NCBI RefSeq assembly: GCF_900232105.1
Contig: NZ_LT934425.1
Coordinates: 2,220,001 to 2,252,000 of the forward strand
Length of the DNA stretch: 32,000 nt
Direction of reading: 5' to 3'
DNA from: Candidatus Kuenenia stuttgartensis
GTDB taxonomy: Bacteria; Planctomycetota; Brocadiia; Brocadiales; Brocadiaceae
Position numbers and translations under genes: made by a program. Shown here in pieces: positions 4,249 through 26,205 of the stretch. Each line of letters begins with the position of its first letter. The first letter of the stretch is position 1. Below the pieces are notes generated by a model that was not told the DNA's origin, did no database searches, and worked only from the letters and a program-made list of their open reading frames with translations.

Positions 4249-4360
4249 CTAAAATTAGGTATGATGTCGCTTGAATTCAAGTCTGGCAATGATTTTTGGA
4301 AAAGAGTTGCAGACCATATTTATTCCAGACCAGCATTGTAAATAGATACGGTGACCCCAT
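4249..4360. repeat. Dispersed repeat family A, full-length copy
   Basis: ctaaaattaggtatgatgtcgcttgaattcaagtctggcaatgatttttggaaaagagttgcagaccatatttattccagaccagcattgtaaatagatacggtgaccccat. About 90% identical by eye to 7675-7793. Confidence 0.85.
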
Positions 4361-5186: not shown

Positions 5187-5278
5187 TCTTGTTCGTTTTA
5201 AAGGGTTACACATTCCTTTATCTTAAGTTTGATAGGGCAGGCAGTCACATCTGGGTCAGTCACACAATCAGATAATCA

Positions 5279-5332
5279 GGGGACACTTCCCATATTGCTT
5301 GCTTGATCTTGGGAAAATAAGGGAAGTGTCCC
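5279..5332. repeat. Hairpin repeat family B, copy 2
   Basis: ggggacacttcccatattgcttgcttgatcttgggaaaataagggaagtgtccc. It lies between convergent genes and could double as a bidirectional terminator. Confidence 0.8.
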
Positions 5333-5386
5333 TATATTTCCCTGAATAATAGTTGAATAATGAATGCCTGACCATCTGTCTCATGT

Positions 5387-5948: not shown

Positions 5949-6078
5949 GCGGGTTCAGGTTTGCAACTCAATGCTATTAAGTTAAGAATTATTTGGTTAA
6001 AACAACCCCCTAAATCCCCCTTTTCTAAGGGGGACTTGAGGAATTCCCCCTTAATAAATGGGGTTAGGGGGTTGTTTT
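5949..6078. repeat. Half copy of hairpin family D (gcgggttcaggtttgcaac) followed by G/C-run palindromic repeat family E, copy 1
   Basis: Outer inverted repeat aaaacaaccccctaa (5999-6013) / ttagggggttgtttt (6064-6078). Inner hairpin tccccctttt-c-taaggggga. Related copies at 14327-14389 and 19826-19888. Confidence 0.8.
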
Positions 6079-6383
6079 GCCAGCATTTATTGTGTATTCA
6101 AAAAGTCGTTGCCGAAGGCAGCCTGATTTAAATGTTTTTAAAGTACAACCTTGCCTTGATTCTTTCTAAAGAAATTGGTGGTTCAAAGATTTTTATGGGA
6201 TCAAAAGCTATGGCGAACCAGTTTGTATCTTTAGTTGCAGGGCATTGATAGGGTGGTTTTGAAAATTGCATTATGCCAAATACATTTTTGCCTGTAATTG
6301 AAATATGAAGGCCGGACCCTGAACTCTCTCTTGATCCACCCTACCGCAAAACCTGCTTAAATAAAATGAAAATTCCTATACTA

Positions 6384-7595: not shown

Positions 7596-7672
7596 GGGAT
7601 AATCAGGGGACACTTCCCATATTTCTTGCTCGATCTGGTGGAAAATATGGGAAGTGTCCCCTGATTATTCCC
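7596..7672. repeat. Hairpin repeat family B, copy 3 (extended stem gggataatcaggggacacttccca...tgggaagtgtcccctgattattccc)
   Basis: Longest and most symmetrical copy. It directly abuts repeat A3. Confidence 0.85.
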
Positions 7673-7674
7673 GG

Positions 7675-7793
7675 CTAAAATTAGGCATGATGTCGCTTGA
7701 ATTCAGGTCTGGCAATGATTTTTGTAAAAGAGTCGCAGACCATATTTATTCTAGACCAGCATTGTAAATGTCAATAGATAAGGTGACCCCATC
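7675..7793. repeat. Dispersed repeat family A, full-length copy
   Basis: Aligns end to end with 4249-4360. It contains both the gtaaat and gtcaatagataagg variants seen separately in copies A2 and A1. Confidence 0.85.
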
Positions 7794-7829: not shown

Positions 7830-9092
7830 TCAGAACGGTTCTTCGTAATCTTTCATTTCTTTATCGTATTTATCAATGAAACTGAGCAACAACTCACCCT
7901 TATTAGAAAAATATTTCTCAATAAAGATAGAAGTTTCTAAGGGAACGAAGTCAATATTCTGAGCTGTAATGCCAGTATAATTATATTCTGGCAGTTCAGA
8001 AAAAAAGGAGTCCTTTTGGATATTTTTTATATATACCTCTAAATCCTTCGGATTTGTACCTTTAGGATATTTTATTTTGAAAAAATCGTTTTCATCAAAA
8101 TCAATTATTTCACTATTATAAATTCTTTTTGGACCAAACTTGGGATTAACGATGATAAGTCTGTTAAAACCTTTTGACGCGTAAAATAGCAGATTATTAA
8201 TATATGGATCAAAAAAACTATAACCTATAACAAATATATATTTTTTAATTCTTAGCAATTCATTAAATTTTTTCATAAGGCTAAAAAAAGGTTCAACCGA
8301 AATGGTTTTAGATCCTTGTCCAAAAATCACATATGGATTATGAAAGGGTTCAATATACTCTTTTTCTTCTTCAGGAAACTTTGATTCTTCATATATTTCA
8401 CCAGATTCAACTCTGGCCCAGTCAATAGAACCATGAAGTTTATATAAATTTATCCTTCCAAACTCGTCTAATTTATCTTCATCATCAATACCTATCCATT
8501 TACCGTTATAAAAACCCCTCCAGGGAATTTCATGATGAGCGCCAAAATACTTCTCAATTACTAAGTCATTATTTAAAGTACAAACGTCTAATCGGAAACT
8601 CTGCTCTGAATAGCCTTGAAAGAATGCCCGTATTGGGGCAAGGTAGCCGAATTTATCTTCATCAGATTCCAACCAATGATTTTTCAAAAGGGATTTCAAT
8701 TTCAATTCCAATTCTTCAAAAAGATTTTTTCTGTCCTGTTTTTTATAAGCAGTCTCCAGTTCCACCAATTTATCTGCCCAATTACCTGTAATCGGATAGG
8801 GCAAAAAAAGTTCTCTATTTTTAATCCTTCTAATGAGGAGAACCAATTCTTCAATATTTGGGTTAAATTCTATTTCTCCGCCAGTTTTTATTGATCGCCA
8901 CTCGGCATGGTATGCCATACAGGATATTAAAAACTGTAAGGCTTCTTTTTCGGTTGGAGTAAAACTATCATCATCCGAAAGAATCTTTTTCTTTAAATCG
9001 CTGAACATTTCACCTGATGTTAAACATCCTGTTCCAAAGGAGAAACCAGCTCCCAAAAAGAATAGCGTCTTTTTTATAAGTTCTACTTCCAT
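7830..9092 (-). CDS. SIR2-like (SIR2_2/ThsA-type) putative NADase effector
   Basis: 420 aa. FLGAGFSF (encoded about 9037-9060), a TLNNDLVIE TxNxD-like motif and LYKLHGS (8428-8448) are the three signature motifs of defence-type SIR2 domains. The start lies 1 nt after the pAgo stop. Confidence 0.8.
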   Translation of the reverse strand: MEVELIKKTLFFLGAGFSFGTGCLTSGEMFSDLKKKILSDDDSFTPTEKEALQFLISCMAYHAEWRSIKTGGEIEFNPNIEELVLLIRRIKNRELFLPYPITGNWADKLVELETAYKKQDRKNLFEELELKLKSLLKNHWLESDEDKFGYLAPIRAFFQGYSEQSFRLDVCTLNNDLVIEKYFGAHHEIPWRGFYNGKWIGIDDEDKLDEFGRINLYKLHGSIDWARVESGEIYEESKFPEEEKEYIEPFHNPYVIFGQGSKTISVEPFFSLMKKFNELLRIKKYIFVIGYSFFDPYINNLLFYASKGFNRLIIVNPKFGPKRIYNSEIIDFDENDFFKIKYPKGTNPKDLEVYIKNIQKDSFFSELPEYNYTGITAQNIDFVPLETSIFIEKYFSNKGELLLSFIDKYDKEMKDYEEPF

Positions 9093-9093
9093 A

Positions 9094-11112
9094 TTAAATA
9101 AACCAAGGAGTTTTTTGCGAAATCTTGTTTTCTGAGATTTCTCCGTTAAAATGCAAAGAAAAATCTGCTATCATTTTAGAATATTTGGTTGTTACAGGTT
9201 GACTTGTTTGCATCAGTCCCTTCCAATTTAATCGTGAAAATTCATATACCTGCGACAATATTTCTCGATGTGAAAAACCACCTACATCTGCATGGAATAT
9301 TTTCACTTTAATGGGCAACTCATCTTTTACTTTACGAACTGGCTCTTTTTCATATCTATTATTATTGAAAAGCAAATATTCGTCTTTACCAATTTTTACA
9401 TAAGTTCCACTTTCAGGCATCCCCATATCATATTCGGTATCAAAACATATATCTGACTTGCTTTTGGTATCATTGACTTCAGTAAGCGCAAAAGGTATAT
9501 CTAAATTTAATTTGTTGTAAATTACCTGCTCAAAATTTTTTATCTCATCTTTTCTTGGTGGTTTGTAATAATGAATAGTTAATCTGTCAGGACTACCAAT
9601 AGACTTTGAATAGTCATCTATTGCGATCTTCAAATGAGATATTAAATCTTCTCCTGCTCTCTCCTCTGAGAAACCGTATATCCTTCCCAAGCGCCCTTCA
9701 TTGTCGAAAAATACAGCGCTGCCTATCCATTTCTGGTCTTGTAATTTTTTGTAATTATATCCAATCACTAAATCATTATATTTTTTTGTGTTTAGTTTCC
9801 ATGGGATTCCGCCTAATTTTGCCAATATAGCAATTGCTATGTTGGGCAAGCAATAATTAAAATTTCCACTACGAACAGTTTTATTTGCAATAAACTGAGA
9901 GGTAATTCCTTTATCAAGTAAGAGCTTTTTAATTTCATAATAAGTTTTTTCCTCTTCTTCGTCACTTTCGTATTTGCTAAATGGCCCTATAATTACTGCC
10001 GCATAGTTATAATAGTCATTATCGGGAAATTGGGCGGCAAGAAATTCCTGTAACTTTGTGGATAATTCTCCAGTGCTTGAATAGTATAGGCTTTTTTCCT
10101 TGTCCAATACTACAGGAATACCAACATATGTTAGCAATCCTGGAAATTGTTTTAACCCGTTTCTTAAATACTGATATACTTTATTGGCATCATCCCTTTC
10201 ATTGTAAATAAAAAGGATTTTTATATCGTTAGCATTATCAATCTTTTTATACGGTCCATACTCCCGCATTCCAATTACTGCATTAACAGTTTTATTTTCA
10301 CCGCCAAAAACCATTAAATTATCTTTTAATATTATTCTTTGCCTGTCTTTATCTAAAACGGTTTTAAAACCAGTTTTATCAATATTAAAAAAAACAGATT
10401 CAAAATCCTTTAGTCCCGATTTAAGAAAATCAAGAATGTTTTTATACTCTGTTTTATAGCTGCAAGGAATGACTCTATTCGCTCCTTCTATTCCTGACCG
10501 CATTTGTTTATCAGCGATAACTTTAAATGAATCTCCTGATAGAATTTGTTCATATTTACAGATTAATTTATTCCCAATGTTAACTACTTTCCGAATACCA
10601 TCAATTTGAAAAATTTCTTTTCTACTTATTAATGTAAACTCACTTCCAACACTAATGGATAGCTCTTCATTAAAAGATTTATAAACTAAATCATACCTAA
10701 TATATATTTCCCAGTCTGTTTTAAAATCTTCTTTACGTTTATAAACGGAGAGGTCAAAAGCAGTAGGATTTAGATCAACATAAAAACCTTTATCTAAAAA
10801 GTAATTAGTTAACTCCTGTTTAATAATTAATCTCTTTAAAGATTTAATATCAAAATTATCAGATGAAATGAAATAAGAATTATTATCCCTATCCAGAGAA
10901 AATTCGATTTCAACTGGGTCTTCATCCTTAATATTGTTTTTTTTAAGCCACTCATTAAAATTATTTTTTGCTTCATCATTTTTGATTTTGTTTCTTAACC
11001 ATTGTGATTCTTTAGCAGTGATGACAAAACCTTCTTTATTTTTAATGTTTACAAACCATTGTTTGTCTAAATGGAACCGCAAATTTGTTCTATTTAACAA
11101 CAAAGTACTCAT
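9094..11112 (-). CDS. Prokaryotic Argonaute (MID-PIWI), catalytically inactive, with a roughly 290-aa N-terminal region and no obvious PAZ
   Basis: 672 aa. PIWI hallmark AILAKLGGIPWKL (about 9799-9823). MID 5'-end pocket pattern YYEIKK...GITSQFI..NK (Y-K-Q-K type). C-terminal ...PVTTKYSKMIADF...TPWFI. DEDX positions read GYNY (not GxDV) and IHYYK (not RDG). GAGGGAGG SD lies 6 nt upstream. Confidence 0.85.
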   Translation of the reverse strand: MSTLLLNRTNLRFHLDKQWFVNIKNKEGFVITAKESQWLRNKIKNDEAKNNFNEWLKKNNIKDEDPVEIEFSLDRDNNSYFISSDNFDIKSLKRLIIKQELTNYFLDKGFYVDLNPTAFDLSVYKRKEDFKTDWEIYIRYDLVYKSFNEELSISVGSEFTLISRKEIFQIDGIRKVVNIGNKLICKYEQILSGDSFKVIADKQMRSGIEGANRVIPCSYKTEYKNILDFLKSGLKDFESVFFNIDKTGFKTVLDKDRQRIILKDNLMVFGGENKTVNAVIGMREYGPYKKIDNANDIKILFIYNERDDANKVYQYLRNGLKQFPGLLTYVGIPVVLDKEKSLYYSSTGELSTKLQEFLAAQFPDNDYYNYAAVIIGPFSKYESDEEEEKTYYEIKKLLLDKGITSQFIANKTVRSGNFNYCLPNIAIAILAKLGGIPWKLNTKKYNDLVIGYNYKKLQDQKWIGSAVFFDNEGRLGRIYGFSEERAGEDLISHLKIAIDDYSKSIGSPDRLTIHYYKPPRKDEIKNFEQVIYNKLNLDIPFALTEVNDTKSKSDICFDTEYDMGMPESGTYVKIGKDEYLLFNNNRYEKEPVRKVKDELPIKVKIFHADVGGFSHREILSQVYEFSRLNWKGLMQTSQPVTTKYSKMIADFSLHFNGEISENKISQKTPWFI

Positions 11113-14100
11113 TTATTTACCTCCCTCAATTATTGTAATTTCTACCCCGGTCAAACCGTAGAGTTTATAAACAAGCTGGTCAATCTGCCTTTCCAGCGGT
11201 GACGTGTCGGCATTAGGGTCTTTTTGCTTTTCGGTGAGGATTTGGTCAACAAGAGAATCTAATTGTTTCTTATCTGTATTTTTAAGGATTGGTATGGGAA
11301 TTTGTTCGAAATATTGAGGCTTGACTTCGATGAATCCACCGCTTCTTACAACACATATCGTTTTCAAAAAATACCAAACAACTTTTGAGTTAAGAATCCC
11401 TAATAGCCATTTCGCATCGGTTGGCAAGAAAACTGCCGGCGCATTAAGGTATGTACCGCTAATATCATAGGCAAATTTGTTGGAGTTTTGAAGGTTGGGG
11501 AATATTATTTTTGGTTTTGCAAACAGGTCATAATAAGCACAGTTTCTAAGTTCCCACCAGAACTCCCCCTTGTCATATCGCTTTCTTGCTGCCTCAGCAA
11601 AGGGCTTAAGATGGTTCATGATTGATGGAAAAGCAGCCCTCATTGCTTCAAATGCCTTTGCTTCGTCCTGTCCGTTAAAATACGTACGTGTTGACTTGTT
11701 TTCGAAGACGATCATCTTTTTATCAATCGCTGGGGTCTGCCATTTCTTGATATCTTTGCCCTCGAAAACAGGTTTGAGGTGCTTGCTGTTTCCCAAGTCT
11801 TTTTCTGTTATAAATGCCTCATTTAATGCTGTTTTAATACCATAATAGCACTTTCCAAATACGTCTTTCAACTTCTTATGAATGGATATTTTCTCTGATA
11901 ACTCCACTTGTCCCTGATGATCAAAACTCCAGGAAAACTGCTTCAGTGCTGAACTTGGTAGAAGCGTATAAGAAATGGCTCTACCCGAATTAAAATTGCC
12001 AAATAGATCTTCGGTTACTTTGAGATATGCAAATGCTTCCTGATGCTTTGATTTTATCGCAAGAAGGATTATTGGGTAGGTTGTGGTACCCTCAAAAACA
12101 CCAACAGATTTAAAGTCAACATACTTGTTTAATGAAAAATTATCCGAGACATATTTACGTAGAGTTTTTCCGGCAGTTGTTTTATCAAACGCATTATTGA
12201 TAAAACAAAAAACTCCCTGATTTGTCAGAATATTAAAAGACCTCTCATAGAAATAATAAAAAATATCTCCGCTTGGGGCAAATACGGTGTAGGTAGCCTT
12301 AAGATAAGTTTTCAAATCTCCCAAATCTTCAGCCCGAATATACGGCGGATTCCCAATCACCACATCAAACCCCTCCTTAATCCCAAACATCCACTCTGTG
12401 TCAAAGAAAGTAGCCGAGTTGTTCTGGTCGTAAGGATCCCAGGCGGCTATTTTTTTGGCAGTGGCAGGTTGGAAGTCATGGTTTTCTATTAGCAATTCAG
12501 CCAGTTCGTCACGCAATTGTTTGTCTTTTATACGGCAGGTTTCCTTACGCCTGGGCGTCCGGGCTTCAAAGTAATCGTGCCGCACCTTTTTCAGTTCGGC
12601 CTTTTTCTTTTCTATATCAGGGTTGGTAAACAAATGCGCCTTTTCTTTTTCCAGCCCTATCAATGTATTGGCAGCCACAAATTTCGTTTCCAGGTTTGGC
12701 AGGGGACGTACGCCTAAGTTGTCTCTCCTGTGATTTACCTTTTGATCAACAATCAGGGAAATAAAGAACCGCAGCTTGGCTATCTGTACGGCGATGGACT
12801 GTATATCTATACCATAAATGCAGTTCTCTATGAGGTAGAGCTTGCGTCCATAGTCAAATTCGTTGTTATCAAAGGCTTCTTCAATATCTCTGCGCGTGTT
12901 GTGCAGGTCTTCAATTACTTTTTCCCTGACACGGGTGTCTGAAATGCCTTCGGCATCTTCAATCAGTTTATCTACCTTATCTAACTGCCGTTGTTTCCAT
13001 CGGGCGTTGTTGGGATCGAGTTTATGCAGTATATGAACCATCCTGTGCAGTATGCCCATTGGGAAAGCCCCGGAGCCGCAGGCAGGGTCTAAAATCTTAC
13101 AGGTATCAATCGCCTTAACAAGAACCCCGGCTTCCTCAGTATTGAAGGGATTGGGGTTTTCAGAATAACTGAGCAGGTCGCGTAATCTTTCTTCGTTTTT
13201 GTCGGTGTTGTTAGATTCTTCGCTCCGCTCAGAATGACAAAAGGGGACAGAATGACCGGCTGAGACGGAACTACGGGATGGGACATCATGACAAGATGAG
13301 AGAGATTGCTTGAGGTAGGCCAGCAATGATTCGTCCACCATGTAGTTTACAATCTCGCGCGGAGTGTAAAACGAACCGGTCTGTTTGCGGGCAGTGGTTT
13401 GGGTTTCGGGATTGTAGTTGGCTAAAAGGTTTTCAAATACCTTACCAAGCAATTCGGGGTCGAGGGCTATTTCTTCTTCTATGGGTGTATTTTCGGCAAC
13501 AGTAAATTTATAGCTGTTCAGAATGTCAATGATCCCGTAAACCTTTTCTTTATTTTTTTTGGATGAACTGTAGATCCTGCTTAAATCGACGTCCACACCT
13601 TTTTCGTTAAAAAACAGCTCGTCCGGCACTTCCAGCACATTATCTTCCCGGTCGCTGAAGCTGTCAATACGGATGCGCTTTCGTTTGCCGTCATCGTCCA
13701 GTTCCTTATCCAGGCATTCAAACAAACCGCCGTTGAGAAAAGGGATCGGAGAAAAGTATTGCTCCAGTGTTTCTTTTGGTTTTACAAATTCATTCTCGTA
13801 ACGGAATACGTTGTGGATGAAATAATGTCCATCGCGTCCGCTGTCATTTTTAGTCCTGAACCCGCGCTTGCCCATTTCGGTGTTTAGGGTAGCAAAGAAC
13901 AGGTTTTGCAGGATGGCTTTATAGTAAGCGCTTTTCTTATTGTCAGTATATTTGAGCAGTTTCTTCAACTGCTTCTCATCAAATAATGCATCCGGAACCA
14001 GTCCTTTTTCTTTCAGGAACCAAACAAACATCAAACGGGTGATGAGACGGATAACACTGGTTGCATTGCGTACATCTTTGTCCTTTCCTGCATCATCAGG

Positions 14101-14925
14101 AAACACCACTTTTTGTGTGGCCCAAAAATACCAGTTGGCAAGTTCCCTGAAGAAACGTTTGTTGAGTTCGGAGGTGTCTAATGCCTTTTGCCAGGCATTA
14201 TGCAGTTCCACAAAATTGGTAAAGCCGTGTTTGTTTTTTAGTTCATTGAATGAGAGGTCGAAGAGGATTTCTATGTGGGCGCGGTGGGTGACTGCGCCAT
14301 CGCCGCCGGAAACAATTTCCTTGCCCAAAACAACCCCCTTACCCCCTTTTTTAAGGGGGATTTCTACATCACCCCCGCCAGCGGGGGATATGCGGATGTT
14401 TTTGATGAGGGTTACTTTCTGAAGTACATCCTTGCTTTCGTCCCGTTTGTGCAGCCTGCGGTTGATGACAGAAAGTGTGAGCGAAAAACCGTGTTTGAAC
14501 AAAATCATAACTGGCATGGGAAACAGGCGATTGACTTCACGGGTGATGTGTGAAAGTTCGGTTCTGCTGTAGTGTTCTTTCGCCAGTTCTATGGCAAAGA
14601 ACAAATACGTTTCAATGACAGTGCGGTCAACCTGTTTGGTATCGAACAGTGACAATTGCCTTGTTACCTCTTCCTTAGAAAGCTGGAAGAGCAGGTCAAC
14701 ATATTTCCAGTCTTTTACCAATGCCTTGTCTTCATTAAACATGGATTGACTATCTATGAAGGAATCTCTGAATGCAATATAGGCAGGCTTTTCCAAAGGC
14801 GCCCGGCGTTCGGTAATATAGCCAAGGGTTTGAAAGAGGTTTAATGCATTTTCGGAAAGGTTGCCAGCGCCAAATTGCTGGATGGCTTCCTTTATTTTTT
14901 GCCTGAGGTCTTTCGCCATAATCAT
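11113..14925 (-). CDS. Large Eco57I-family gamma-class N6-adenine DNA methyltransferase with TaqI-like C-terminal target-recognition domain (PglX / DrmMI / type IIG-like)
   Basis: 1270 aa. Motif I ILDPACGSGAFP. Motif IV VVIGNPPYI (12337-12360). C-terminal GEFWWELRNCAYY...GGFIEVKPQYFEQIPIP is typical of TaqI_C specificity domains. The first codons overlap a REP copy, so the start could be the ATG at 14919 (MAKDL...). Confidence 0.85.
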   Translation of the reverse strand: MIMAKDLRQKIKEAIQQFGAGNLSENALNLFQTLGYITERRAPLEKPAYIAFRDSFIDSQSMFNEDKALVKDWKYVDLLFQLSKEEVTRQLSLFDTKQVDRTVIETYLFFAIELAKEHYSRTELSHITREVNRLFPMPVMILFKHGFSLTLSVINRRLHKRDESKDVLQKVTLIKNIRISPAGGGDVEIPLKKGGKGVVLGKEIVSGGDGAVTHRAHIEILFDLSFNELKNKHGFTNFVELHNAWQKALDTSELNKRFFRELANWYFWATQKVVFPDDAGKDKDVRNATSVIRLITRLMFVWFLKEKGLVPDALFDEKQLKKLLKYTDNKKSAYYKAILQNLFFATLNTEMGKRGFRTKNDSGRDGHYFIHNVFRYENEFVKPKETLEQYFSPIPFLNGGLFECLDKELDDDGKRKRIRIDSFSDREDNVLEVPDELFFNEKGVDVDLSRIYSSSKKNKEKVYGIIDILNSYKFTVAENTPIEEEIALDPELLGKVFENLLANYNPETQTTARKQTGSFYTPREIVNYMVDESLLAYLKQSLSSCHDVPSRSSVSAGHSVPFCHSERSEESNNTDKNEERLRDLLSYSENPNPFNTEEAGVLVKAIDTCKILDPACGSGAFPMGILHRMVHILHKLDPNNARWKQRQLDKVDKLIEDAEGISDTRVREKVIEDLHNTRRDIEEAFDNNEFDYGRKLYLIENCIYGIDIQSIAVQIAKLRFFISLIVDQKVNHRRDNLGVRPLPNLETKFVAANTLIGLEKEKAHLFTNPDIEKKKAELKKVRHDYFEARTPRRKETCRIKDKQLRDELAELLIENHDFQPATAKKIAAWDPYDQNNSATFFDTEWMFGIKEGFDVVIGNPPYIRAEDLGDLKTYLKATYTVFAPSGDIFYYFYERSFNILTNQGVFCFINNAFDKTTAGKTLRKYVSDNFSLNKYVDFKSVGVFEGTTTYPIILLAIKSKHQEAFAYLKVTEDLFGNFNSGRAISYTLLPSSALKQFSWSFDHQGQVELSEKISIHKKLKDVFGKCYYGIKTALNEAFITEKDLGNSKHLKPVFEGKDIKKWQTPAIDKKMIVFENKSTRTYFNGQDEAKAFEAMRAAFPSIMNHLKPFAEAARKRYDKGEFWWELRNCAYYDLFAKPKIIFPNLQNSNKFAYDISGTYLNAPAVFLPTDAKWLLGILNSKVVWYFLKTICVVRSGGFIEVKPQYFEQIPIPILKNTDKKQLDSLVDQILTEKQKDPNADTSPLERQIDQLVYKLYGLTGVEITIIEGGK
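13195..13300. repeat. Probable repeat-derived in-frame insertion inside the MTase gene (peptide SCHDVPSRSSVSAGHSVPFCHSERSEES)
   Basis: Low-complexity segment with a cagaatgac direct duplication. Another frame of the same strand reads ...VILSPFVILSGAKNL... (track ORF 13089-13289). I recognise these peptide signatures as typical of a widespread short repeat. Boundaries are approximate. Confidence 0.5.
14290..14395. repeat. Family E repeat inserted in frame inside the MTase gene (peptide SPAGGGDVEIPLKKGGKGVVLGKEIVSGGDGAV)
   Basis: aaaacaacccccttaccccctttttaagggggatttc (from 14327) aligns with intergenic copy E1 aaaacaaccccctaaatcccccttttctaagggggacttg (from 5999). It is followed by the hairpin acccccgccagcggggga. 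Outer boundaries are approximate. Confidence 0.7.
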
Positions 14926-15829
14926 GCCACCCCTTCGGGCTTTCGTTTATTATAATATTTTAGTTTTTTGAAAAATTCCACAAATGAGATGATTACCTTT
15001 CCCTGTAGTGGCAATGCGTTTCACATGCGCTTCGCTTTCTCTTCGAGTTATGAATTGCCGCTATATATATTGATACAAAGGTATTTTGCAGTTTTGACGT
15101 TTTCACAAAACTAGCATGTTACCGTTTTTTTTGATTCAGTTTACAATCTTTACAATCCCGAAGGGATGTAATTATTATAGATTTAATGAAAGAAAACCAC
15201 CAAACCCCGAAGGGGTGTAATTATTATAGCAATTATTTATTTTATTATTCCAACCAATCAAACAAATATTTTTCATGGAATTCCACATTGAATCTTTTCA
15301 AAAAATCCGAATATTCTTCCTTAAATGTCTTCCGCTTATGATGTTCTTCCTGGTTCAAAATATAGTTGTAAACTGTTTCGATCTGCTATGTGCATAGGAG
15401 AAGGCTCCGTATCCTTCTGCCATGAAATTTACTTCTAATCATTACCGATCCATATTAATGAAATTCGTCGTATTGTTTTTCACATCCCTGACCAAATCAG
15501 AAATAGCCATGGACGGTTGTAACCCTATAAATATATGCACATGGTTGGCAACGCCGTTAACGATTATAGACTTTTGTCCCTTATTTTTGATGATACCAGC
15601 CATATATTTGAACACCTCATCTCTCCAGGGTTTTTGCAGCAGATTCGACCTGCCGTTTACGGCAAAGATTGCCTGTATGTATATTTGTGTGAATGTTCCA
15701 GACATGATTTTTTATTCTATAATCATTTCACCCCTTTGGGGTTGTTGTTTGTGGTTATTCTTTGGCTATAATCATACCAGCCCTTCGGGCTTTTTGTCAT
15801 ATTGTACCAGTTTAGTTTTTTGAAAAACA
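14917..15829. mobile_element. REP/RayT cluster: decayed Y1 transposase gene bracketed by inverted REPs (family G) and inverted family C repeats
   Basis: REP G copies: cataatcatgccaccccttcgggc (14917-14940, rc), cccgaagggatgtaattattatag (15157-15180), cccgaaggggtgtaattattatag (15206-15229), ctataatcataccagcccttcgggc (15771-15795, rc). C5 (15100-15124, forward) and C6 (15805-15828, rc) lie outside them. Confidence 0.75.
15245..15705 (-). pseudogene. IS200-like / REP-associated tyrosine transposase (RayT, Y1_Tnp) pseudogene
   Basis: Frame 1 gives MSGTFTQIYIQAIFAVNGR...VANHVHIFIGLQPSMAISDLVRDVKNNTTNFI (HxH motif), then a stop at 15442. The rest is readable only after frame shifts: ...AEGYGAFSYAHS then QIETVYNYILNQEEHHKRKTFKEEYSDFLKRFNVEFHEKYLFDWLE* ending at 15245. 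There are at least two frame disruptions. Confidence 0.8.
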
Positions 15830-16054
15830 TGATTTTTTCAGCTATTCCGCAGCCCTGACAGGGTTTCAAAACTCTGTCAGGGTTAAATCAGCGAGTAGGA
15901 CGCACCCTGCGATGTTACAATTTTTGTAACATTTTAAGTAAAGAATCCACCAGCGAAACAGATAGCTTTGGGTTTATCCCTATAAGGGGATGAGTTTATC
16001 CGGTGGGACTTGCATATCGATACTATGCAATTGGTCAGTCACTGGCTGACGATT

Positions 16055-16354
16055 TTACGGTAGCATCAATTGGGCAGTCAGTGACCGCCTGATTTGCGGA
16101 TAGGTTTGGTAAAACTGCCTGAATAGCTTTAAGTTACGGCAAGATAATCCTTTATTATCAAAACGTTCCGAAAGATTTTGCAATAGGTTTTCGCCATAGG
16201 TAGCCCGGTCTTCCCCTTTTTGCTCATACTCAACAATGTAAAAACCAATTAGCCAGTTACGGATTGTAATATGGCGGTTAATTGCCGTTACAGCCGATTG
16301 TTGCAAGGCAGTATGGGTCTGCTGTATGGTATTAACTAAGAATTCAAATTTCAT
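16055..16354 (-). pseudogene. N-terminal fragment of a DUF1016/YhcG-type (PD-(D/E)XK nuclease family) protein
   Basis: 99 aa. IRNWLIGFYIVEYEQKGEDRATYGENLLQNLSERF...CRNLKLFRQFYQTYPQI matches the YhcG N-terminal domain. Full-length members are about 3.5x longer as I recall, and the nuclease core is absent. The start lies 1 nt after the helicase stop. Confidence 0.65.
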
Positions 16355-16355
16355 A

Positions 16356-19300
16356 TTACTTTATGACTAACCACGTTACTAACTCAAAATTATCCAAATC
16401 ATGCACCTGTTTCGACTGTGGTATCAATAATGCACCACGGTCAGTGGTGAGTTTTTGATTGCTGCGTTTTCTGAATACATGACTTATTTCATATACGGCT
16501 TTTTTTAGCAATTCAGTATACTTACCCATCTCCTCGCCATTCCTGGTTTCTGTATTGAATAATTCACAAAGCTTCTCATAAGGCGCTTTGCGCCCCTGAC
16601 ACATCAGGCGGTAGATTTCCAGTATCTGTTTGGCGTTGGTGTAATTGAAACGAACCGTTCCGTCTTCGCGAATGTATGCCAGAAAGTAAGGTTGCAATGG
16701 GTTTACTTCTTCGTTGCCGCCGGTGTCGCCTTTTTGCTTCAGGCAATATACCACACCCGGTTTGATAATATTCTTTTCGGCTGGAGTAAAGCGGCTTGCA
16801 TCTGTATTTTGCGCATGAATGCCAGATGGTGAAGGCACGACGGCATATAAACCAAAGGGCGCATCTTCCAGCTTCTTACTATTATTTTCCAAAAATGTGT
16901 GCAATTCGATGCGGAAATCATCCAGGGTAAAATCGGTTAACGAAATGCTTTCGCTCATTTCTTCGAGGTCGAGCACTTCTTTTTGCAGTTTTTTCAGTTG
17001 CCGGTTACGGTACTTCAAATCATCTGTGATAAGCTCTTCTATTTGTTCGGTATTCAGTATGTTGTCTTCGCCGGTGGCGGTAACGTCAACCAATGCCATC
17101 CGGGACTCCACGCGTTCTTTCAGGTTGATGTAATTATCAAGGTCTTTGGTAGGCCAGAAGTTTATCAGTTGGATTTTCTTATTCCTGCTTCCCAGCCGGT
17201 CAATACGGCCAAAACGCTGAATGATGCGAACGGGATTCCAGTGAATATCGTAGTTAACCAAAAAATCACAATCCTGTAGGTTCTGCCCTTCGCTGATGCA
17301 GTCAGTGGCGATCAGTATATCTATCTCCACTTCCTGCGGCATGGATTTCATTAATTCCCTGTTTTTAGAAACGGGTGAGAAGTTGGCGAGGATGTTTGAA
17401 AAATCATTTTTGCCGAATGTGGTTTGGTTGGTATTCCCCGCTACCAATGCAATGTTCAATTTCAAATCTTTTTTCACCCATTCTTTCAGACAATTATATA
17501 GGTATTGAGCGGTATCGGCAAAGGCGGTAAAAACGATTACCTTCCTGTTGTTGCTGTTCAGTGGTTGATTAATTTTTTGTTCGATTAGTTTTTGAAGGTC
17601 TTTCAGTTTTGCGTCACGTTCCGGGGTCACCGCAACTGCCGTATTATACAACTCATTGAGGGCTTCTTTGTCTTTTGTTAAATCGTTCAACCAATCTTCC
17701 AGACGTAAATCAGCTAAATCAAATTTCAATTTTTTCCCTACCTGCCATTGTTCAAGGTCGTCGGTATTTTCTTCTAATTCGTCTTCATCCGGTTCCAATG
17801 TTTCCAAAACCTCTTCCTGCGATTTAGCGTTTGATTTAAGGAATTCATTGATTCTGCTTTCAAGTTTTTCGATTTTCTGAATTGTTCTGTCCATTGAAAT
17901 CTCAAATGATTCAATACAGCTTTCCAGGCGTTTCAGGAAGTTTACCTTCATCATTCCGATAAGGAAGTGCTCACGGTCGCTTTGTTTGAAGGCAAGGATT
18001 TCCGTTCCGGCTAACGCTTCATATTTCTGCTTCTTTTCATCCTTCACATAGGCAGAAGGATTAAATACCGAAAGCTTGTATTGCAGGATTTTTTTGTTCA
18101 GCGCATCGTAGGTAAAAAAGCGGTCTTTTATATCAATATTCGGGTAGAGGGAATGAGGCTTTAACCGTTCTGGGAATTGCCCTATGGCGTCAATATTGTA
18201 AAAACCCTTTATGTGCTTTCTGCTCCGGGCAATAGTGAGTTCGTCCAGCAATTTGAAGAAGGATGAATCAAGGCGTTCCATTAATTGCTTAACTGTTCTG
18301 TCGGGATTCTTTTTATGGTCAGCCCAAAATGTAAACTGTGTCTGGGCATTCCTGAGTGTAAGGGCAATATCCTTGATTTGTGTACTCTCAAAGAGGGCAT
18401 CATTTTCGCCTTCCGTAATGAGTGAGATTTGATTTCTTAAATCGCGAAGGTTATTGTTGACCGGCGTAGCAGAAAGCATGAGTACCTTTGTTTTCAATCC
18501 CGACTTGATGATTTTTTCCATCAGCCATTTGGCACGGTTCATTTTGATGGCGCCGTCATCTTTGGCCTTTTCCATCGGATTGCCCCGAAAATTATGTGAC
18601 TCATCGATAACTACAAGGTCATAGGCGCCCCAATTGAAGTTTTCAAGGTCTATGCCGTTTGCATCGGATTTACCGGTTATTCTGCCGAGGTCGGTATGGT
18701 ACAGAATGGTATAGTTAAACCGGTCTTTGGTAAACGGATTAAGTGCGTTGTTTTGGCTCGCCTGGTAAATCGTCCAGTTAGCCGAGAGTTTTTTTGGGCA
18801 GAGCACAAGAACGCGGTAATTCAATAATTCGAAATAACGGATTACCGCCAACGCCTCAAAAGTCTTGCCCAAACCGACGCTATCCGCGATGATGCAGCCG
18901 TTGTGTTTCAGGATTTTATTGATGGCCCCTTTTACGCCGTCTTTCTGAAAGTCGTACAGCTTATGCCATATTTCGCTTTCAAAAAATCCGGTGCGTTCAT
19001 TCAGCAAACCGCCGCGTTTTTGTTCGTCAATATAGTTCCCAAAGAGGTGGAACAGGGTTTTGAAGTAAATAAACTCCGGTTCATTTTCAATATAAAATTG
19101 TTCAAGGTCTTTAAGCACTTCGGCTTTAACATCTTCGACGAGTCCTGTTGTGTCGTTCCACAACTCATTAAACCAGTTTGTCAGGTCATCCAAATCCCTT
19201 CTGTCCTGGATAACCATATTCAATTCGATGTTCGGGCTTCCGCCCATTCCGAGTCCATGAACAGTGAAATTGGAACTCCCCATGACCGCTTCTTTAACCC

Positions 19301-19694
19301 CGTTTGGATTTTCCATCAAATAAAGCTTGCCGTGCAGGAAGTTTGGTTTCACCATGGATTTGACGTGAACCTTTTCTTTAATCCAATCCGAGCATTCTTT
19401 GGAAAGGGATTTTTGTTTTAAGAGGCTTTCAATTGGGATTACCAGTGAATCGTCCTCGATTTTGAAGTCGCGCCTGTTGGTTTTTGCCGGGTCCAGTGAT
19501 TTGATAAAGGATGGCTCACCAAAGAGGAACCTTAGGTGATCTGTTCGGTCGAGTTGGTTTTTTAATTGTTTGTATGCGTAAATGGTGAAGTATGCCGAGA
19601 CTATTGATAAACCGGCGCCTTGCTTTACATTATCAATAAGGAATTGGCCGACTGTTCCATTTTTATGATTGTCACGGATTGAAGTATTGTTCAT
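16356..19694 (-). CDS. PLD-nuclease-domain / SNF2-family helicase fusion protein
   Basis: N-terminus: FLHGKLYLM (19314-19340) plus GSSNFT form an HxK PLD motif. Middle: DSVGLGKT (Walker A), VVIDESHNFRG (DExH). C-terminus: QRFGRIDRLG (helicase motif VI). The track ORF starts at a TTG (19733), so the ATG at 19694 (MNNTSIRD...) is preferred. Confidence 0.85.
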   Translation of the reverse strand: MNNTSIRDNHKNGTVGQFLIDNVKQGAGLSIVSAYFTIYAYKQLKNQLDRTDHLRFLFGEPSFIKSLDPAKTNRRDFKIEDDSLVIPIESLLKQKSLSKECSDWIKEKVHVKSMVKPNFLHGKLYLMENPNGVKEAVMGSSNFTVHGLGMGGSPNIELNMVIQDRRDLDDLTNWFNELWNDTTGLVEDVKAEVLKDLEQFYIENEPEFIYFKTLFHLFGNYIDEQKRGGLLNERTGFFESEIWHKLYDFQKDGVKGAINKILKHNGCIIADSVGLGKTFEALAVIRYFELLNYRVLVLCPKKLSANWTIYQASQNNALNPFTKDRFNYTILYHTDLGRITGKSDANGIDLENFNWGAYDLVVIDESHNFRGNPMEKAKDDGAIKMNRAKWLMEKIIKSGLKTKVLMLSATPVNNNLRDLRNQISLITEGENDALFESTQIKDIALTLRNAQTQFTFWADHKKNPDRTVKQLMERLDSSFFKLLDELTIARSRKHIKGFYNIDAIGQFPERLKPHSLYPNIDIKDRFFTYDALNKKILQYKLSVFNPSAYVKDEKKQKYEALAGTEILAFKQSDREHFLIGMMKVNFLKRLESCIESFEISMDRTIQKIEKLESRINEFLKSNAKSQEEVLETLEPDEDELEENTDDLEQWQVGKKLKFDLADLRLEDWLNDLTKDKEALNELYNTAVAVTPERDAKLKDLQKLIEQKINQPLNSNNRKVIVFTAFADTAQYLYNCLKEWVKKDLKLNIALVAGNTNQTTFGKNDFSNILANFSPVSKNRELMKSMPQEVEIDILIATDCISEGQNLQDCDFLVNYDIHWNPVRIIQRFGRIDRLGSRNKKIQLINFWPTKDLDNYINLKERVESRMALVDVTATGEDNILNTEQIEELITDDLKYRNRQLKKLQKEVLDLEEMSESISLTDFTLDDFRIELHTFLENNSKKLEDAPFGLYAVVPSPSGIHAQNTDASRFTPAEKNIIKPGVVYCLKQKGDTGGNEEVNPLQPYFLAYIREDGTVRFNYTNAKQILEIYRLMCQGRKAPYEKLCELFNTETRNGEEMGKYTELLKKAVYEISHVFRKRSNQKLTTDRGALLIPQSKQVHDLDNFELVTWLVIK

Positions 19695-19728
19695 AGGTTC
19701 ATGTATTATCTTCTTTCCTGGAAAAATG

Positions 19729-19810
19729 TTCAATATTCAATTCTCAATATTCAATTCTCAAATTGTTGCTCATTTGCCTCTATTCTTTTACATTGAATAT
19801 TGAATATTAA
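19729..19810. repeat. Low-complexity tandem/inverted repeat (tcaatattcaattc x2 ... attgaatattgaatatt) over the 5' end of the helicase gene
   Basis: ttcaatattcaattctcaatattcaattctcaaattg (19729-19765) and cattgaatattgaatattaa (19791-19810) are mutually inverted. Confidence 0.8.
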
Positions 19811-19825
19811 TTTTCAGTAACAGTT

Positions 19826-19888
19826 CACCCACCCCTTAATCCCCTCCCAAGAGGGGACTTCTTGTATTCCCCTCTTGAGAGGGGTGTG
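19826..19888. repeat. G/C-run palindromic repeat family E, copy 2
   Basis: cacccaccccttaatcccctcccaagaggggacttcttgtattcccctcttgagaggggtgtg has two tandem hairpins of the cccctc..gagggg type. Confidence 0.75.
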
Positions 19889-25958: not shown

Positions 25959-26032
25959 TGCCCCCAGCAGGATTCAAACCTGCAACCTTTGGCTCCGGAG
26001 GCCAACGCTCTATTCAATTGAGCTATAGGGGC
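25959..26032 (-). tRNA. tRNA-Arg (anticodon CCG)
   Basis: Minus-strand read gcccctatagctcaattgaatagagcgttggcctCCGgagccaaaggttgcaggtttgaatcctgctgggggca. 7-bp acceptor stem gccccta/tgggggc (one G-U pair). T-arm gcagg-tttgaat-cctgc. Anticodon loop ctCCGga. No encoded CCA. Confidence 0.9.
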
Positions 26033-26107: not shown

Positions 26108-26205
26108 TTGGTCATTGGTCATTGGTCATTGGTCTTTCGTCTTTCGTCACTCGTCATTGGTAAACTGCTGACTGCCGACTGTAGATTGTAGATTGCCAAC
26201 TGCAG
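26108..26205. repeat. Heptamer tandem arrays (ggtcatt x3, gtctttc x2 and variants; then gctgact/gccgact; tagattg x2)
   Basis: ttggtcattggtcattggtcattggtctttcgtctttcgtcactcgtcattggtaaactgctgactgccgactgtagattgtagattgccaactgcag. Confidence 0.85.

Follow-up and report, generated by a model that had tools for sequence, protein, structure and literature searches.

Rickettsia palindromic elements (RPEs) lie in frame within unrelated protein genes, where they are translated, remain compatible with the protein fold and persist across species (PMC10969869, summarising Ogata et al. 2000). They are single elements of ~100-150 bp, and some of their families are nearly half intragenic (PMC10969869). Intragenic REPs of the GTAG and CGTC super-families occur as singles or dimers inside ORFs, known proteins included, encoding 20-30 residues and argued to be tolerated, and REPs have been reported in Planctomycetes too (Di Nocera, De Gregorio & Rocco 2013, PMC3733652). 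REPINs, in turn, are mobilised by RAYTs (Bertels & Rainey 2011, PMC3116915).

The window analysed here, a 32,000-nucleotide stretch of Candidatus Kuenenia stuttgartensis DNA, contains a methyltransferase gene whose reading frame carries a cluster of small hairpin repeats (Table 1). This methylase insert displays every trait of an in-frame intragenic palindromic repeat, a phenomenon rather than a sequence family. Compared by description, it resembles RPEs in behaviour, its repeats being small, palindromic, in frame and translated. It differs from them in being a cluster of 16-35-nt hairpin units, about 6% of the genome's units being intragenic, and in residing in a planctomycete. In contrast to GTAG/CGTC REPs, the Kuenenia units carry no tag and consist of plain C5/G5 stems following a C-rich arm. 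The phenomenon is already known, and the understanding of how such repeats behave is left unchanged by the methylase insert; what is new is this member, with its somewhat unusual unit family. These small repeats are not described in the two Kuenenia genome papers. The insert is very probably an ancient, tolerated in-frame insertion of small palindromic units that has been drifting as a nearly neutral disordered loop.

The units share several properties with REPINs. Arm-plus-hairpin units are strongly over-represented, numbering 152 genome-wide against ~7 expected in a first-order Markov simulation, and they are mostly extragenic; in addition, the intergenic element E1 forms an inverted doublet with a long hairpin or clover fold. 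The methylase copy, however, is a tandem cluster of unlike A and B units with no inverted doublet. The 59 B copies occur in the contexts ...CCCCCTGCA-B-ACAT or ...CCCCCTTAAT-B-ACAGG, and A units start with AAAACAACCCCC; no GTAG/CTAC or CGTC tag is present in either. The genome holds 22 matches to the Y1 transposase family (PF01797), 19 of which were tested for hairpin distance. At none of these 19 loci does a C/G hairpin lie within 500 bp, the nearest being 580 nt to 55 kb away, and the median distance is 11.6 kb compared with 14.4 kb for random positions. A RAYT-type identity, suggested by the broken Y1_Tnp upstream of the methylase, was therefore rejected: because they have neither a GTAG/CGTC tag nor proximity to a Y1 transposase, the units are not classical RAYT-type REPs.

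A second comparison concerns MITEs derived from DDE insertion sequences. Most B copies sit within two conserved terminal modules that flank two DDE_Tnp_1 genes (loci L016 and L017; 367 and 578 residues), and at more than 12 sites these modules are joined directly to each other with no gene between them, at a spacing of 120 or 237 nt. The gene-less joined modules are MITE-like derivatives. Two further B copies lie ~400 nt from a 518-residue ORF of another insertion sequence (L019). While the B hairpin thus resembles MITEs in its placement within DDE_Tnp_1 terminal modules, the methylase insert differs in consisting of bare units, with no terminal inverted repeats, no target duplication and none of the IS or MITE terminal sequence that surrounds most B copies.

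Table 1. Features of the window and of the genome discussed in the text (window coordinates unless marked as genome positions)
Feature	Position	Strand	Description
Methyltransferase host gene	11113-14925	-	1270 residues; from ORF list, translation, Pfam and motif positions
In-frame insert	14287-14388	-	102 nt, 34 codons, residues 180-213; bounds from homologue alignment and empty sites
Unit B hairpin	14372-14387		CCCCCGCCAGCGGGGG; read as (S)PAGGG
Unit A	14327-14360		arm AAAACAACCCCC, TTA, hairpin CCCCC-TTTTTTAA-GGGGG at 14342-14359
LGKEIVS segment	14308-14328	-	21 nt; present in this genome and P0003 metagenome contig only
GGDGAVT segment	14287-14307	-	candidate decayed A arm
Second repeat-derived in-frame insert	13204-13296	-	residues 544-574, SCHDVPSRSSVSAGHSVPFCHSERSEESNNT; linker from N6_Mtase motif to motif I
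E1, intergenic	5999-6078		inverted dimer of two A units, 15-bp outer stem (REPIN-like); fold -52.5 kcal/mol
E2, intergenic	19826-19888		arm CCACCCCTTAAT plus two CCCCTC...GAGGGG hairpins
B-hairpin module examples	genome (G000) 14211/14448, 18184/18304, 170377/172009, 1012538/1014783
SIR2 partner of Argonaute	7830-9092	-	defence island member
Prokaryotic Argonaute	9094-11112	-	672 residues; defence island member
HKD(PLD)+Snf2 helicase	16356-19733	-	defence island member
Broken Y1_Tnp remnant	15385-15693	-	one TGA and one TAA inside; directly upstream of methyltransferase start
35-nt repeat flanking Y1_Tnp remnant	14909-14943, 15710-15744, 15759-15793		overlaps methylase start codon
DUF1016 gene	16055-16354		99 residues
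Separate hairpin repeat family	1699-1769, 5271-5341, 7596-7671		core GGGACACTTCCC; 3 window copies
95-nt direct repeat	4249-4343, 7675-7769
tRNA gene	25959-26032
7-nt tandem repeat	26108-26161		TTGGTCA and variants; adjoins tRNA gene

Repeat units of the methylase insert

The insert encodes SPAGGGDVEIPLKKGGKGVVLGKEIVSGGDGAVT (SPAGGG...GAVT) and contains no stop, so that the 1270-codon ORF runs through it. It replaces the 9 nt of the three-residue E-x-P connector of other homologues with 102 nt, for a net gain of 93 nt. Across the segment, three of six reading frames are open, which makes an open landing unremarkable. The predicted tryptic peptide spanning the insert junction is ISPAGGGDVEIPLK.

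The insert is a composite of two different genomic repeat units, termed A and B. A preliminary description of this DNA had recognised a repeat translated within an unbroken frame, as is indeed the case, and had placed it at 14290-14395, a span about right but now refined by the homologue alignment and the empty sites. It had further equated the string from 14327 with both intergenic elements. For E1 this is correct as far as unit A is concerned, which has ~91% identity to one arm of E1 over 35 nt (35 of 39 bases matching), a match beyond chance against the whole 4.4-Mb genome (E = 4e-6, blastn-short), while a repeat search of the window finds 14326-14376 to be 82% complementary to 6029-6079 over 51 nt; unit B, however, is absent from E1. 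The equation with E2 did not survive: E2 has 25 further genome matches by BLAST, and the methylase copy is not among them. Because BLAST does not pair the two, E2 represents a sister subfamily that shares the arm-plus-hairpin architecture but has hairpins unlike those of the methylase copy. Many B copies have an arm similar to that of E2 (CCACCCCTTAAT).

Unit A is translated in the methyltransferase as IPLKKGGKGVV(L). The adjoining LGKEIVS segment is absent from homologues P0002, P0004, P0005 and P0006 (overall identity 73-98%). With 12 of 18 bases matching, it probably arose by tandem duplication of the arm codons before it (GKGVV) and has since diverged. The terminal GGDGAVT segment probably derives from the arm of a second A unit in a decayed state; it aligns with the clearer second A-like unit SLNKGGDGVIT of L002 and with SGKGVV of G042.

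Both units recur well beyond the methylase. The genome, a single contig of 4,406,153 bp with 41% G+C, contains about 20 further A units and 59 exact copies of unit B. The unit B 16-mer is also found in 22 of 28 family genomes, representing 10 of 12 genera, with no match to the reversed control in any of the 28. The genome census of family copies proposed in the preliminary description gives 10 of the 152 units deep within long ORFs, chiefly those of defence and surface proteins. One of the 10 looks like chance; the other nine lie in this methylase, an N6_N4 methylase, an SNF2 helicase, a FliK-like protein and several DUF7948-SBBP proteins, the units of the SNF2 helicase and N6_N4 methylase being of the E2 type (genome positions of E2-type units: 4,023,127 and 4,025,434). 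Specifically, a private 26-residue insert containing B lies inside a conserved block of the DUF7948 domain, as aligned with its paralogues (L011; G000 4221364-4224642), and a private insert of ~130 residues with two units lies between domains of a DUF7948-SBBP beta-propeller protein (L008; G000 1818815-1823545).

Multi-hairpin elements are purged from long ORFs. The methylase copy alone, one of 29, lies deep inside such an ORF and the other 28 lie outside, against a long-ORF coverage of 77% of the genome (binomial p = 3e-17).

The insert site in homologues and its history in Brocadiaceae

In an alignment of 60 sequences, all non-anammox homologues lack the segment. More than 40 of these, from Bacteroidia, Nitrospirae, Anaerolineae and other groups, read KVTLIKDIxI-ExP-HRAHIEIL, with a three-residue connector, typically E-x-P, between the blocks that flank the insert in the window (KVTLIKNIRI and HRAHIEIL). 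Read as DNA, the empty site in L032 and L033 encodes I-R-I-E-Q-P-H-R, and comparison of the filled window site with these two empty sites reveals no target-site duplication. No transposase tied to the methylase insert was found either.

Every full-length Brocadiaceae homologue read carries an insert at the same site. These comprise metagenome contigs L001-L007 and family genomes L021-L030, the latter representing six genus groups (g1, g3, g7, g8, g10 and g12). As judged from these orthologues, the insertion is neither recent nor private to this genome but common to the whole Brocadiaceae clade of the gene. The possibility that nothing was inserted, the segment being either an original low-complexity linker with a chance likeness to the repeats or an artefact of assembly, is scarcely credible. 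Gly/Pro-rich linkers are indeed common and the hairpin units are short, but the exact 16-mer occurs 59 times in the genome while its reversed control is absent from 28 genomes, unit A matches E1 at the E value given above, independent assemblies (L001-L007, L021-L029) contain the segment, and all outside homologues lack it.

The content of the insert differs between lineages. It consists of B only in L003 and L022, of A only in L004 and L027, of B and A in L001, L005, L021 and L024, and of B, A and a further A-like unit (A') in L002 and L025. The B stem is broken in G012 (CCCAC) and G026 (CCACC), and G007 has a disrupted B. Between the window and the Kuenenia-type contigs there are two differences in length, both in frame: a loop deletion of 3 nt (L006) and the 21-nt LGKEIVS segment; in intact copies of the insert, indels are in-frame only. 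One methylase copy (G032) carries a frameshift, but this lies upstream of the insert.

At the same time, most of the lineages retaining unit B have exactly the same left junction (ata tcc ccc gct ggc ggg ggt), and all Brocadiaceae inserts read share a right junction ending in (V/I/G)-T-H. From these shared junctions we infer that the insert was founded once and that units were lost and duplicated afterwards. Independent gain of different units at the same loop by different anammox lineages, possibly with an existing copy attracting more, is very unlikely. Such a hot spot would fit the strongly lineage-dependent unit composition, the wide distribution of units in the family (10 of 12 genera for the 16-mer), the extra A-like units of L002 and G042, which look like later additions or duplications, and the unrelated G/P-rich inserts that P0007, P0019 and P0060 carry in another linker of the same protein. 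It is opposed by the common junctions, which point to a single founding event, and the lineages without B are explicable by deletion between two ATCCCCC-like repeats.

Under the preferred explanation, that of one ancient and tolerated insertion, a cluster of small non-autonomous palindromic units, in each of which a C-rich arm precedes a C5-loop-G5 hairpin, would have landed in the strand-helix connector of the methyltransferase N-terminal domain, in the ancestor of the Brocadiaceae version of the methylase gene. Since its length was a multiple of three and it was stop-free in the landing frame, the gene would have stayed open, and the units would have been translated as a Gly/Pro/Lys-rich peptide (SPAGGG, IPLKKGGKGVV) forming a disordered surface loop. 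Units would later have been lost, duplicated or decayed by lineage, with the reading frame of intact copies as the only visible filter, and the loop would be carried as neutral or nearly neutral baggage rather than as a working part. The insert thereby provides a datable, documented case of selfish palindromic DNA surviving in a working gene of an anammox planctomycete, here a phage-defence methyltransferase. Its traceability across several genera makes the long-term fate of such DNA visible as unit loss, duplication and stem decay.

Predicted loop and constraint on the insert

An AlphaFold2 model of residues 1-480 (63-row alignment; mean pLDDT 77, pTM 0.73) places residues 182-211 at pLDDT 29-37 with no secondary structure, between a confident strand (166-178) and a confident helix (215-223). 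The insert is accordingly predicted to form a disordered loop connecting a beta-strand and an alpha-helix of the N-terminal domain. The preliminary description had proposed that the two flanking blocks should be adjacent and that the repeat had been exapted or tolerated as a protein loop, to be examined by homologue alignment and by its position, surface loop or core, on a predicted structure. The homologues bear out the adjacency and the absence of the segment outside anammox bacteria, the model agrees with a loop, and, of the two alternatives, the evidence favours tolerated over exapted, because unit content, length and stem integrity vary freely among orthologues.

In a comparison of the window with four distant orthologues, which shares one reference and is phylogenetically dependent, 44 of 53 four-fold degenerate sites agree within the insert (0.83). 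The corresponding values are 108 of 179 (0.60) in its local flanks (p = 0.003 versus the insert) and 230 of 450 in the rest of the first 500 codons (p = 7e-6). Nucleotide-level selection, as suggested by the latter contrast, was dropped because a sliding window showed lower divergence over all of the N-terminal 255 codons than over the remainder, leaving the local-flank p of 0.003; residues 226-255 are as conserved at four-fold sites as the insert. The conservation is thus a real but weak signal, the more so as stems have been lost in several lineages. Its cause may be selection on the hairpins, gene conversion with other genomic copies, or spread of the segment by recombination after the flanks had diverged. 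Because the contrast with the local flanks is modest and the comparisons are not independent, it is not taken as evidence of function.

Three observations nevertheless stand against the preferred explanation: four-fold sites are more conserved in the insert than in its local flanks, which pure neutral drift of an old insert does not predict; complete loss was not seen in any Brocadiaceae orthologue read; and the search for a transposase or target-site duplication that would support the insertion mechanism found neither. The first two are compatible with exaptation, in which the hairpins or the Gly/Pro-rich loop would have gained a function. At the RNA or DNA level, they may act as mRNA structure modulating translation, or as a recombination or protein-binding site; at the protein level, the loop may serve as a flexible linker or docking loop. 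Exaptation is nonetheless quite improbable. Retention across six genus groups, the four-fold identity and the persistence of C5/G5 stems in most lineages while loops vary would agree with it, but homologues in other phyla do without the insert, the set of units differs between lineages, and stems are broken or disrupted in G012, G026 and G007. Moreover, the loop has a pLDDT of ~30, the same units are also found in frame in unrelated proteins, and no Rfam family matches the insert, the tRNA being the only hit in an Rfam scan of the window. Near neutrality of the loop, like the single founding event, is therefore what we infer, on the side of tolerance.

A broader proposal, regarded as unlikely, is that the units combining a C-arm with a C5/G5 hairpin are Brocadiaceae-wide, RAYT-independent, very small mobile modules that have time and again become fixed, in frame, within genes for defence and surface proteins. 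If this were true, the four-fold conservation would reflect an ongoing nucleic-acid role or homogenisation, for which a recognition hairpin for a single-strand DNA enzyme, or gene conversion against other copies, would be candidates.

The host protein and its neighbourhood

The host gene encodes an N6-adenine DNA methyltransferase/specificity protein with N6_Mtase, Eco57I and TaqI_C domains (Pfam), in which motif I (DPACGSGAF) and motif IV (NPPY) are both intact. Among the PADLOC models, those for type IIG restriction-modification and for methylases match the protein, and its closest homologue, 98% identical, is named Candidatus Kuenenia stuttgartiensis. In a sequence search of solved structures, the C-terminal specificity region alone matched, to M.BseCI, and a Foldseek search of the PDB with the N-terminal model returned nothing below E = 0.1.

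The same protein contains a second repeat-derived in-frame insert, which is confined to the Kuenenia-type homologues P0001-P0006 and varies in length among them. Its core 25-mer (13214-13238) has no other copy in this genome by blastn, while other Brocadiaceae genomes contain up to 46 copies each when as many as 3 mismatches are allowed, against none for the reversed control. The linker that holds this insert is also occupied in other homologues. P0007, P0019 and P0060 carry their own Gly/Pro-rich inserts there (e.g. SPFSKGG...PTLAKGGKGG), apparently C/G-hairpin repeats of the respective genomes in translated form. In P0025, P0031, P0055 and P0073 (loci L002 and L003), an IS200-like Y1_Tnp (PF01797) domain lies in frame in the methyltransferase at about residues 650-737, in the same linker, so that a complete transposase-like domain is translated within the methylase in more than one phylum; the named bearers are Jettenia and Anaerolineae, with the Bacteroidetes sequence P0035 identified by precomputed domains only. 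For annotation, the inserts carry a warning: peptides like SPAGGG, PLKKGGKG and CHSERSEES, where they occur in proteins of anammox bacteria, are repeats in translation and should not be taken for motifs.

The methyltransferase is part of a defence island (7830-19733, minus strand) whose other members are listed in Table 1. The Y1_Tnp upstream of the methyltransferase is unbroken in the Kuenenia-type contigs L006 and L007, and the DUF1016 gene preceding the methylase, which encodes 364-376 residues in other anammox loci, is much shorter here. Elsewhere in the window lie a separate hairpin repeat family, a 95-nt direct repeat and, next to the tRNA gene, a 7-nt tandem repeat.
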